Made by a program: the position numbers and the translations under genes | The notes under the pieces: generated by a model | The model's database searches: none | What the model saw: only the letters and a program-made list of their open reading frames with translations | What the model was told of the DNA's origin: nothing | Shown here: one piece after another, positions 4,689 through 6,773 of the stretch | How positions within the stretch are numbered: position 1 is the stretch's first letter | Layout of the letters: each line of letters opens with the position of its first letter | Assembly: GCA_030614005.1 (NCBI GenBank) | Contig: JAUWKS010000023.1 | Coordinates: 1-32,000, forward strand | DNA length: 32,000 nucleotides | Reading direction: 5' to 3' | Source: Candidatus Heimdallarchaeota archaeon | GTDB taxonomy: Archaea; Asgardarchaeota; Heimdallarchaeia; JABLTI01

Positions 4689-5282
4689 ATGACACAACAA
4701 GCACCAGATCTATTTTACTATGAAGGAAATCAGTTAAAGATAGTAGGTATCAAAGGCACTGGTTTATCTACAGCTGAAAATTTCGGAATTAAAACTAGAT
4801 CAGCTTCCACAGGTTGTTGGAGAGGGTATATTATGCGTTACGAAATAAAGGATAATCAATTATTTTTGGAAGGATTTTGGGTGCGAACACAGGATGGAAT
4901 AACACCACCAATAATCAATAATACTGCTCCTTTAGAAATAACACGAGAATATAATCCTGGGGGATTACGTGGTCTTGGGTTCAGATATTATTATAAGGAC
5001 GTGTACTTAAAACTCCCATTCACTGGATCTTTGTTATTAGGTGCTAAATCCATTGAAAGTGAATATGTTCACATGGGATATCCGAGCCCTACTTCTTTTC
5101 GAACAGTTTTAAAATTTGATTTTAAGGACGGGAATATAATAAATGTTGAAGATGTTTCTGAAAAAGCTGAAGAAGCAAGACTTGTAAAAGGAGACCCCAA
5201 AGGATATAACCCCGAATCTGATTCTGCTGAAGATATCAAAAAATGGGTTGAAAAACGATTTTCTTTAGATTCTGAATTATAA
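4689..5282 (+). CDS. Conserved hypothetical protein (MTQQAPD...STGCWRGY...YEIKDNQLFL type); ATG 4689 preferred over GTG 4659
   Basis: Long clean ORF. The T-x-CWRGY and EIKDNQLFL pattern resembles an uncharacterised family I recall mostly from bacteria. Confidence 0.8.
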   Translation: MTQQAPDLFYYEGNQLKIVGIKGTGLSTAENFGIKTRSASTGCWRGYIMRYEIKDNQLFLEGFWVRTQDGITPPIINNTAPLEITREYNPGGLRGLGFRYYYKDVYLKLPFTGSLLLGAKSIESEYVHMGYPSPTSFRTVLKFDFKDGNIINVEDVSEKAEEARLVKGDPKGYNPESDSAEDIKKWVEKRFSLDSEL

Positions 5283-6773
5283 TTGATTGGGGACTATTTT
5301 TCTTTTTACTGGTTGAACTTTATTAAAAGAAACAAAATTGCCTTTTTCTGTAAGAGATATGAAAGTTTTGTCATTGACGAATGACACTTGGGCATTAATT
5401 TCGCGATTGTTGATAAGATCATAGATAATCGGCACTATTCGTTTATTATCATCATTATAAACAGCACTCAAAGTATCCAGTGGCATAATAGTAACATTTG
5501 CTAATATTGAATTAATGTTTGATTTTACCATTTTACCCAACAATATATTAGAAAATTTGATTCCTAGCTTTGGATCAAAAATTTCGCTTAATTTTTTGAT
5601 ATTCCCTTCTTGAAATAGATTTAGTACCGAATTTATAGATTCAATAAAAGCTTCGTTGTGTGCATCTGTCATACATTTACATTTCATTATTTTTGACCAG
5701 TTTTGTTGTTCCATTTTCTGAATGATTGAATAAGCAATAATGATGGCGTTGAAATCGCTTAAAAACTCTGCATATTCAAAAGCATCATTTCGTTTGGTAA
5801 AAATTTCTGCCATATAAGTGCTAATAATAACTTCTTGTGCACTAAAATTATTTACAAAAATCTTTAGATTCAGATTATGAATTCGGTTTAATGAGATATT
5901 TTTACAGAATTTTCGTTTTACAAGTAAATCCTTACAGAATTTCTGGAAATTTTCATTAATAATCTCTGAATTATATTTTGAAGCAAGCTTAGTTAAAACC
6001 TGAGCAAGTTTTTTCTCTAAAGATTTATTCGGTTCATTGTATGTTGCTTTTAGACTTTGAATAAAAGTGGTAATTATTTCTTCACTTGAATCCTTGGCTA
6101 ATTTTTCATAAATATCAATAACAATCATTCTTGTATTTTGATCTGATGAATCAGCTAACTCTAATAGACTTGTTAGAATCTTCTTTTGTACACTTTTTTC
6201 ATTTTTGAAGAGAAGAACTAGAGTAGTTATTAATTCAATCTTTTCATCTTGGTTGGTAGCTTGTAGAATTTTCGAGAGAATCGATTCAACTTTTTCTTTA
6301 ATTTGTGCTTTTGAAGTTTTTTTTGTTTTTTTATTGCGACTTGATTTTGGAGTTGCTTTTTCTTCTTTTCTTATATCAGAACCATTTTCCTTCTTAGGAG
6401 GTTTCTCTGGTACTTTAGTTTTAATTTCAGTTTTTTCTTTATTTACTGGTTTATCTTCTACTTTATTTTCGCTTAAAGAGGGTATCTCTATTTTAATTAA
6501 ATCCTGTGTAGCTATTGGTTTTATTTTGAAGGATTTTTTCAGAAGAATTATTTCTCCAATTTTACTTATGAGATTTACAGGTATAGTTTCTTCTACAATG
6601 AAATCGCTTTCTAATTCGGTTAAAATTGAGATTTTCATCCTTACTTTGTTTTTCTCATCTTTAAATAAACTAACACATTTGGCAATGATATGACCATCAG
6701 GATCAACAATTGATTTACCCACAAGATTTTCTGCTTTTAATTCATCATCTTTGGGGTATTTAGATCGTATCAT
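5277..6773 (-). CDS. Multidomain protein: N-terminal PRC-barrel, Lys/Glu-rich linker, HEAT/ARM-like helices, C-terminal PCI-like winged helix
   Basis: PRC-barrel: LVGKSIVDPDGHIIAKC...IPVNLISKIGEIILLK. PCI-like: LLGKMVKSNINSILANVTIMPLDTLSAVYNDDNKRIVPIIYDLINNREINAQVSFVNDKTFISL. ATG 6773 is preceded by GGTG; the track uses TTG 6785. Confidence 0.8.
   Translation of the reverse strand: MIRSKYPKDDELKAENLVGKSIVDPDGHIIAKCVSLFKDEKNKVRMKISILTELESDFIVEETIPVNLISKIGEIILLKKSFKIKPIATQDLIKIEIPSLSENKVEDKPVNKEKTEIKTKVPEKPPKKENGSDIRKEEKATPKSSRNKKTKKTSKAQIKEKVESILSKILQATNQDEKIELITTLVLLFKNEKSVQKKILTSLLELADSSDQNTRMIVIDIYEKLAKDSSEEIITTFIQSLKATYNEPNKSLEKKLAQVLTKLASKYNSEIINENFQKFCKDLLVKRKFCKNISLNRIHNLNLKIFVNNFSAQEVIISTYMAEIFTKRNDAFEYAEFLSDFNAIIIAYSIIQKMEQQNWSKIMKCKCMTDAHNEAFIESINSVLNLFQEGNIKKLSEIFDPKLGIKFSNILLGKMVKSNINSILANVTIMPLDTLSAVYNDDNKRIVPIIYDLINNREINAQVSFVNDKTFISLTEKGNFVSFNKVQPVKRKIVPNQL

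Follow-up and report, generated by a model that had tools for sequence, protein, structure and literature searches.

Locus and target gene

The window analysed here is the whole stretch of 32,000 nucleotides at positions 1 to 32,000 (forward strand) of contig JAUWKS010000023.1 from a Candidatus Heimdallarchaeota archaeon (GenBank assembly GCA_030614005.1, 90% complete), with a G+C content of ~32%. Its minus strand carries a gene for a 498-residue protein (hereafter the target) that very likely joins an N-terminal PRC barrel to a HEAT-like helical stack and a PCI-type winged helix, each end remotely homologous to known PRC and PCI proteins. A preliminary description, made from the sequence, had proposed a PRC barrel fused to a PCI-like solenoid and winged helix. 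The target and its parts are listed below with window coordinates, strand and basis.

5277..6773, minus strand: target gene, 498 aa plus stop (open reading frame list, translation, orthologue starts, homologous clusters)
6510..6752, minus strand: PRC-barrel domain, residues 8-88 (AlphaFold2 models, Foldseek, VIA-align, ESM Atlas, hhalign, conservation)
6318..6500, minus strand: K/E/T/S/P-rich disordered linker, residues 92-152 (predicted local distance difference test, pLDDT, 24-39; variable sequence, length and charge)
5562..6311, minus strand: HEAT-like helical-repeat stack, residues 155-404 (pLDDT ~90; VIA-align, CAND1 profile match, weak HEAT_2 hits)
5346..5561, minus strand: PCI-type winged helix, residues 405-476 (model, Foldseek, ESM Atlas, hhalign to PF01399-positive relatives, charge)
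5280..5345, minus strand: short basic C-terminal tail, residues 477-498 (alignment; pLDDT 37; isoelectric point (pI) 11.3)

The open reading frame spans 5277-6785 (minus strand) and includes an upstream TTG at 6785, which is probably not used as a start; the ATG at 6773 was assigned as the start codon, giving a product of 498 aa, because the orthologues all begin at MIRSK. Homologues were recovered as 46 protein clusters in a word-indexed search (39-98% identity, 89-99% coverage), and the labels of the named clusters were nearly all those of Heimdallarchaeota or 'Asgard group' metagenome-assembled genomes (MAGs). Just 22 relatives were returned by an exhaustive HMMER scan of 1.84 billion representatives, and 8 MAGs labelled 'Candidatus Heimdallarchaeota' or mislabelled equivalents by a contig scan. 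The orthologue alignment contained 35 invariant columns. Mean identity between the target and its orthologues was 68% in the barrel, the most conserved part, 51% in the winged helix, 43% in the stack and 21% in the linker. DNA near-identical to the target was present in cold-seep and marine-sediment metagenomes from at least 4 studies; among public runs, no RNA run was listed for the gene. The target is a real, conserved gene.

Structural model

The target was modelled with AlphaFold2 from a 35-sequence alignment (pLDDT 77; predicted template modelling score, pTM, 0.61). Its parts follow in the order PRC barrel (8-88), linker (92-152), HEAT-like stack (155-404) and winged helix (405-476). The positions proposed beforehand agreed with the model: nt 6730-6520 correspond to residues 15-85, within the modelled barrel, and nt 5560-5340 to residues 405-478, the modelled winged helix. 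Among orthologues the linker ranged from 45 to 90 aa in length and from -12 to +9 in net charge; since it varies in both, it looks like a tether and not a charged binding tail. The C-terminal tail was disordered and confined to the closest orthologues. Residues 155-478 were submitted in two copies, with the alignment, to homodimer prediction and scored 0.00 in both runs, a result that weighs neither for nor against binding. Taken by its parts, the target would be a soluble modular scaffold protein without a catalytic domain.

N-terminal PRC barrel

In the AlphaFold2 model the N-terminal domain was a six-stranded barrel, with its strands between residues 21 and 78; the domain was also folded alone (pLDDT 78). 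When the barrel was searched against PDB with Foldseek, the top 50 matches were nearly all PRC barrels. The best were Archaeoglobus fulgidus CdpB PRC1/PRC2 (8onw, E 7e-4) and MTH1859 (1pm3, E 8e-4), followed by matches to 3htr, reaction-centre H subunits, RimM and CdvA. In VIA-align, ranks 1-11 were all PRC barrels (Z 7.5-4.4), led by RimM (Z 7.5), 8onw (Z 7.4) and 1pm3 (Z 7.1) and including 3htr, reaction-centre H, CdpB and CdvA chains; unrelated folds appeared below rank 11 at Z ~4. An archaeal PRC cluster of the ESM Atlas also matched (template modelling (TM) score 0.57 by the hit).

At the sequence level, the barrel profile was aligned by hhalign with the genome's own PF05239-positive 113-aa protein (E 8e-4, 24% probability, 61 columns), and the motif LVGKSIVDPDGHII of the barrel aligned with that protein. 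The whole-family profile reached MTH1859 among PDB sequences at E 2.6 only (1pm3 chain, listed as 'MTH1895'). The ~600-aa paralogues of the target (described below) scored 14.8-20.0 bits with PF05239, below its gathering score of 21.2 bits.

Judged from the models, the N-terminus has a PRC-barrel fold, although Pfam does not detect it. The preliminary description had called it a typical one and had named as its refutation an N-terminus of another kind. This did not occur in Foldseek or VIA-align, two independent searches whose top matches were all PRC barrels; by sequence, however, the barrel is not a typical one, and PF05239 has no match to it.

C-terminal HEAT-like stack and winged helix

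Residues 155-404 were modelled by AlphaFold2 as uninterrupted helical hairpins. VIA-align matched CAND1 (Z 13.3), SF3B1 and TOG domains over residues 144-390, and the whole-family profile matched the CAND1 HEAT repeats among PDB sequences (E 2e-4). The winged helix that caps the stack consisted of helix 405-426, a short strand 430-431, helices 432-438 and 446-455, and strands 461-466 and 469-474 (hairpin 461-474).

Stack and winged helix together were searched against PDB with Foldseek, and CSN2 ranked on top (4d10_B, E 4e-5), with CSN3, proteasome-lid PCI chains, eIF3 and Thp1 (3t5v_E) also matched. Of 550,129 Swiss-Prot models searched, the 30 best matches comprised 29 Rpn, CSN or eIF3 PCI subunits; their alignments start near residue 156 and reach the end of the winged helix at 476-485. 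In the ESM Atlas, a CSN3 cluster matched with TM 0.41 over 309 residues and a PCI/RPN6 cluster with TM 0.52 over residues 216-479; AFDB clusters agreed with a PCI-type match of stack plus winged helix. A protein-atlas feature search with residues 155-480 returned a single Thorarchaeota HEAT_2 cluster (0.77, below lead level).

A published description (PMC9467303) treats PCI domains as HEAT domains with an acquired C-terminal winged helix, which fits the target. On the strength of the model comparisons, the C-terminus is PCI-like, with the bipartite PCI fold of proteasome-lid, CSN, eIF3 and TREX-2 subunits. A PCI-like C-terminus preceded by helical repeats had been proposed beforehand and was borne out by the alignment of residues 156-480 with lid, CSN and eIF3 PCI subunits; the outcome named in advance as contrary, a generic winged helix-turn-helix (wHTH) without PCI similarity, did not occur, as the winged helix caps a HEAT-like stack. 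Of the per-domain check by model and Foldseek that had been suggested, the PRC and PCI folds were recovered and the PF05239 and PF01399 matches in the target itself were not. Pfam and NCBIfam searches of the target and its parts gave no PRC or PCI match, only weak HEAT/ARM hints and chance hits.

CofD-headed relatives, paralogue and distribution

Two distant relatives found in the exhaustive search (P0060 and P0061; 776-904 aa) carry a CofD-like head and scored 26.7 and 22.4 bits with PF01399, whose gathering score is 22 bits. Four more CofD-headed proteins from other Heimdallarchaeia genomes scored 25.7, 19.7, 25.2 and 28.3 bits, so that 5/6 lie above the cut-off (22.4-28.3 bits). By hhalign, the orthologue profile of the target was aligned with the C-termini of these proteins at 98.3% probability (E 2e-14, 200 columns, residues 274-480). 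A family member in UniProt (A0A1Q9NJD7, annotated '2-phospho-L-lactate transferase') matched the target in Foldseek at E 4e-10; relatives are named in UniProt either 'Uncharacterized protein' or, wrongly, '2-phospho-L-lactate transferase'. Judging from these profile alignments, the HEAT-PCI chassis of the target and that of the CofD-headed family are homologous. The CofD/YvcK-like family is tied to bacterial morphogenesis. CofD-headed HEAT-PCI proteins (L031, L032) end in a C2H2 zinc finger or a K/S/T/P-rich basic tail, and the tail after their PCI winged helix looks like a swappable one of nucleic-acid-binding type.

A paralogue of ~600-637 aa (P0057/P0058 type; 25-27% identity to the target) was found in 7/7 other genomes of the genus that carry the target. 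Its parts are arranged as in the target, with an acidic/basic linker of greater length and, at the C-terminus, a tail rich in K/T; sub-threshold PRC, HEAT_2 and PCI Pfam matches fell at the expected positions (PF01399 16.6-20.9 bits). The window's genome, at 90% completeness, was searched with P0058-type and P0060-type (CofD-headed) queries; the former matched the target locus alone and the latter nothing, and in neither case does this prove absence. A zinc-ribbon coiled-coil protein is the conserved divergent neighbour of the paralogue in related genomes. In the window's genome this neighbour lies at C111:6612-7391 (L055), 284 bases from a contig end, so the paralogue is probably unassembled here and not lost. 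A second zinc-ribbon and coiled-coil protein is encoded at C9:23218-23997 (L056:1450-2229); both are ~260 aa and are paralogues of 28% identity. The 256-aa upstream neighbour of the paralogue (L021) was considered as PRC-like and ruled out by hhalign (best PDB match CdvA, E 0.63, not significant). The 263-aa gene upstream of the most distant orthologue (L020) is unrelated to the zinc-ribbon coiled-coil proteins.

Distribution was sampled in 300 genomes across the phylum. Full-length PRC-headed matches were found only in the window's own GTDB genus (the window's genome and 7/9 others). In four other families of the class, matches were confined to residues ~315-479 and lay in open reading frames of ~750-906 aa, the CofD-headed form; the 25 other Asgard families sampled gave no match. 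On the simplest reading, the HEAT-PCI module is a chassis common to class Heimdallarchaeia that takes exchangeable PRC or CofD/YvcK-like heads, with a head swap and a duplication in the window's genus.

Comparison with known systems

The target resembles subunits of the lid (Rpn3/5/6/7/9), CSN (CSN1-4) and eIF3 (a, c, e, l, m) in its stack of helical hairpins with a winged helix and in the same C-terminal sequence pattern. Unlike them, it is archaeal, has HEAT and not TPR-like repeats, carries an added PRC barrel and a long disordered linker, lacks the helix that joins the bundle with MPN subunits, and has no significant sequence match to any named subunit when profiles are compared with all PDB chain sequences. 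The PCI proteins of Thp1-Sac3 and Csn12-Thp3 act as small pairs without an eight-subunit bundle, an arrangement that would suit a protein lacking the bundle helix, and TREX-2 Thp1 (PCID2) was among the Foldseek matches (3t5v_E). The TREX-2 and Csn12-Thp3 pairs are eukaryotic, bind nucleic acid and are held by Sem1. The CofD-like-HEAT-PCI family shares the chassis of the target and differs in its CofD/YvcK-like head, in its length (750-906 aa) and in often carrying a C2H2 finger or basic tail; the ~600-aa paralogue differs in having the zinc-ribbon coiled-coil protein as its divergent neighbour in place of a NurA-like gene.

For the barrel, CdpB1/CdpB2 (8onw, 8qzo) and MTH1859 (1pm3) were the best Foldseek matches, at 17-28% identity, and share with it an N-terminal G-K-x-V/I-x-D-x-x-G motif; they are standalone proteins of ~75-170 aa, whereas the barrel of the target is the head of a 498-aa multidomain protein. 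CdvA (9s9g) also has an N-terminal PRC barrel in a longer scaffold protein, but its match to the barrel was weaker than those of CdpB and RimM (Z 4.9, Foldseek E 0.03), and the target, unlike CdvA (arCOG04054), lacks the coiled coil and the E3B peptide that binds CdvB. The C-terminal PRC domains of RimM (2dyi, 7cq1, 3h9n) were the top VIA-align matches (Z 6.6-7.5); unlike the target, RimM has an N-terminal domain of another fold, its barrel at the C-terminus and no HEAT or PCI part.

Weighing of the assignment and proposed function

Several observations weigh against the assignment and the function proposed below. TM-scores to PCI subunits were low (0.2-0.4) and root-mean-square deviations high, values that are not proof of homology; low global TM-scores are expected here because solenoids differ in curvature. 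PF01399 had no match in the target at E<=10. Profiles of the C-terminus, searched against PDB chain sequences, found no significant PCI chain (best eIF3c, E 0.63). PF01399 also matched weakly (E<=1) in 14/14 control prokaryotic genomes, above the cut-off in 1 of them, which makes the Pfam PCI signal supportive and not decisive. No helix follows the winged helix, and most orthologues stop 3-5 residues past the last strand, so the helical-bundle assembly of lid, CSN and eIF3 is not available to the target. For the barrel, PF05239 had no match in the target or its 35 orthologues at E<=1, a whole-genome PF05239 scan at E<=1 gave none at the target locus, and the structure is equally near RimM and CdpB. 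The immediate conserved neighbour of the gene encodes a NurA-like nuclease and not a division protein; no partner emerged, and synteny was informative only within one genus.

Much of this is what would be seen if the target were a HEAT-repeat protein that had independently gained a generic winged helix and was PCI-like in shape only: PF01399 is silent on the target and weak in 4/35 orthologues (best E 0.012), sequence profiles find no significant PCI chain in PDB, TM-scores reach only 0.2-0.4, PF01399 cross-matches winged helices of control prokaryotes at E<=1, and the bundle helix is missing. A chance resemblance of this kind is nevertheless quite improbable, given that PCI subunits, aligned end to end, make up all but one of the 30 best matches among 550,129 Swiss-Prot models, that other helical-repeat proteins with terminal winged helices did not show among these best matches, that relatives linked at 98.3% by hhalign exceed the Pfam PCI threshold in 5/6 cases, and that the PCI matches of the paralogues fell where expected. 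Nor is a transcription regulator likely, in which the winged helix would bind DNA and the helical repeats would sense or oligomerise. The winged helix is a common DNA-binding fold, and ArsR-like regulators are encoded nearby (8973-10330), but in the target this domain is neutral (pI 6.4) and basic residues are absent from its helix 3 (IVPIIYDLIN), in 35 orthologues alike, which argues against a DNA-binding wHTH; its fold matches, moreover, are PCI scaffolds and not regulators. This reading was considered highly improbable.

The remotely PRC- and PCI-related architecture is thus the preferred assignment, and with it the target may be a two-ended adaptor, with the barrel at one end and the HEAT-PCI platform at the other. 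The highly conserved barrel would dock on a conserved partner, the platform would bind a second partner or assemble with other winged-helix proteins, and the 45-90-residue linker would let the two ends act some way apart. The lack of a catalytic domain, together with a protein-interaction module on either side of a flexible tether, points to an adaptor or scaffold role, which was considered probable. The likeliest class of barrel partner would be division or cell-shape machinery (a CdpB-like PRC protein, SepF or a CdvA-like zinc-ribbon coiled-coil protein). A link to cell division or cell shape is the likeliest single guess and a tentative one, made because PRC barrels act in archaeal division, because the CofD/YvcK-like head is tied to morphogenesis, and because the genome encodes SepF, a CdpB-like standalone PRC protein and two zinc-ribbon coiled-coil (CdvA-like) proteins. 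SepF is a binding partner of the PRC proteins CdpB1/2, which function in division (bioRxiv 10.1101/2023.03.28.534520), and CdvA, a PRC barrel with a coiled coil, polymerises (PMC12818579).

The main rival to an adaptor in division or cell shape is a ribosome or RNA factor, with a barrel like the PRC domain of RimM (30S maturation) and a PCI module like those of eIF3a/c or TREX-2 Thp1-Sac3. In VIA-align the barrel matched RimM best (Z 7.5), but CdpB and MTH1859 came within 0.4 Z units of it. In relatives, the PCI module is followed by C2H2 zinc fingers or by basic tails rich in K/S/T; the target has no zinc finger, its short basic tail is found in the closest orthologues only, its linker is variable in net charge and its winged helix is neutral. 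In archaea, genes for translation and RNA processing are frequent neighbours of PRC genes (bioRxiv 10.1101/2023.03.28.534520), and the paralogue adjoins ribosomal protein L40e in one locus, whereas no conserved translation gene adjoins the target. The weak best PDB sequence match was eIF3c. A role of this kind was judged unlikely on balance.

Relation to published PCI and PRC proteins

Full-text literature was searched for PCI or PRC barrels in Asgard archaea or Heimdallarchaeia, and neither the architecture of the target nor that of the paralogue was described; the preliminary description had known of no PRC-PCI fusion, and none was found in the papers searched. An ESCRT survey mentions PCI-like winged helices only in other archaeal proteins. 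A survey of PRC proteins reports that fusions exist, and its text does not name the architecture of the target (bioRxiv 10.1101/2023.03.28.534520). The papers searched place PCI scaffolds only in eukaryotic complexes, namely lid, CSN, eIF3 and TREX-2 (including PMC9467303).

A winged-HEAT module in Heimdallarchaeia, the archaea closest to eukaryotes, would be a concrete candidate for the prokaryotic roots of the PCI scaffold. Among multidomain PRC-barrel proteins the target would also be of a new kind, and it comes soon after PRC barrels were recognised as archaeal division factors. Going further, the HEAT-PCI chassis might be a surviving archaeal relative of the module behind the eukaryotic PCI scaffolds, tethered in the window's genus by two PRC-headed paralogues to FtsZ/SepF/CdpB or CdvA-like division machinery. 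This combined proposal is a long shot; if it were true, PCI-type assembly would predate eukaryotes and would have served cell division or morphogenesis first, and not proteolysis or translation. A small and soluble protein with a good model, the target lends itself to direct tests of its partners and oligomeric state.

Gene neighbourhood and other genes

The gene next to the target is divergent to it:

6987..8495, plus strand: NurA-like gene, 502 aa (Pfam NurA E 1.7e-4, barely above cut-off)

The NurA-like gene was adjacent and divergent to the target in 8 related loci and 7 kb off in the locus of the most distant orthologue; no herA, mre11 or rad50 was found in the window. Within the genus, the NurA-like gene, a small convergent gene, LeuC/LeuD, a response regulator and a folliculin-like gene form a conserved block. 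The block was rejected as operon evidence; as it is seen within one genus only, it is weak evidence for a functional link.

A 207-aa open reading frame without Pfam match (4659-5282, plus strand) is convergent to the target and overlaps its stop codon by 6 nt. It has no counterpart at the same position in related loci. Its family is multi-copy in the genus, at varied places, with several copies carrying in-frame stops and 2 more in the window's genome (C95, C21), and may be mobile or of fast turnover. A 1062-aa protein encoded at 20321-23509 (minus strand) matched no Pfam family at E<=0.01. The product of 20321-23398 had been named in advance as a possible partner of the target. The barrel profile was aligned by hhalign with the 20321-21640 product (single sequence) at 0.9% probability, which gives no support for this proposal or for three C-terminal PRC-like repeats. 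The window also encodes a folliculin/DENN-like protein (386-1543, plus strand; PF11704 E 1.4e-6) and a profilin-like protein (19871-20254, plus strand; E 2.8e-4, below cut-off), which are eukaryote-signature genes typical of Asgard genomes.

Elsewhere in the genome, two small membrane-anchored proteins (C43:8930-9097 (L001) and C5:33985-34347 (L002); 188 and 229 aa) have 1-2 winged helices above the PF01399 threshold and a C-terminal zinc ribbon, with no helical stack. Three JAB/MPN proteins above the Pfam cut-off are encoded at C30:18874-19197, C9:9202-9546 and C63:28184-28474 (L037-L039). In two of them the open frame is long (319 and 331 aa), and one of this pair ends in a TRAP-beta-like domain; the JAB/MPN proteins are possible candidates for MPN partners of PCI-like proteins.

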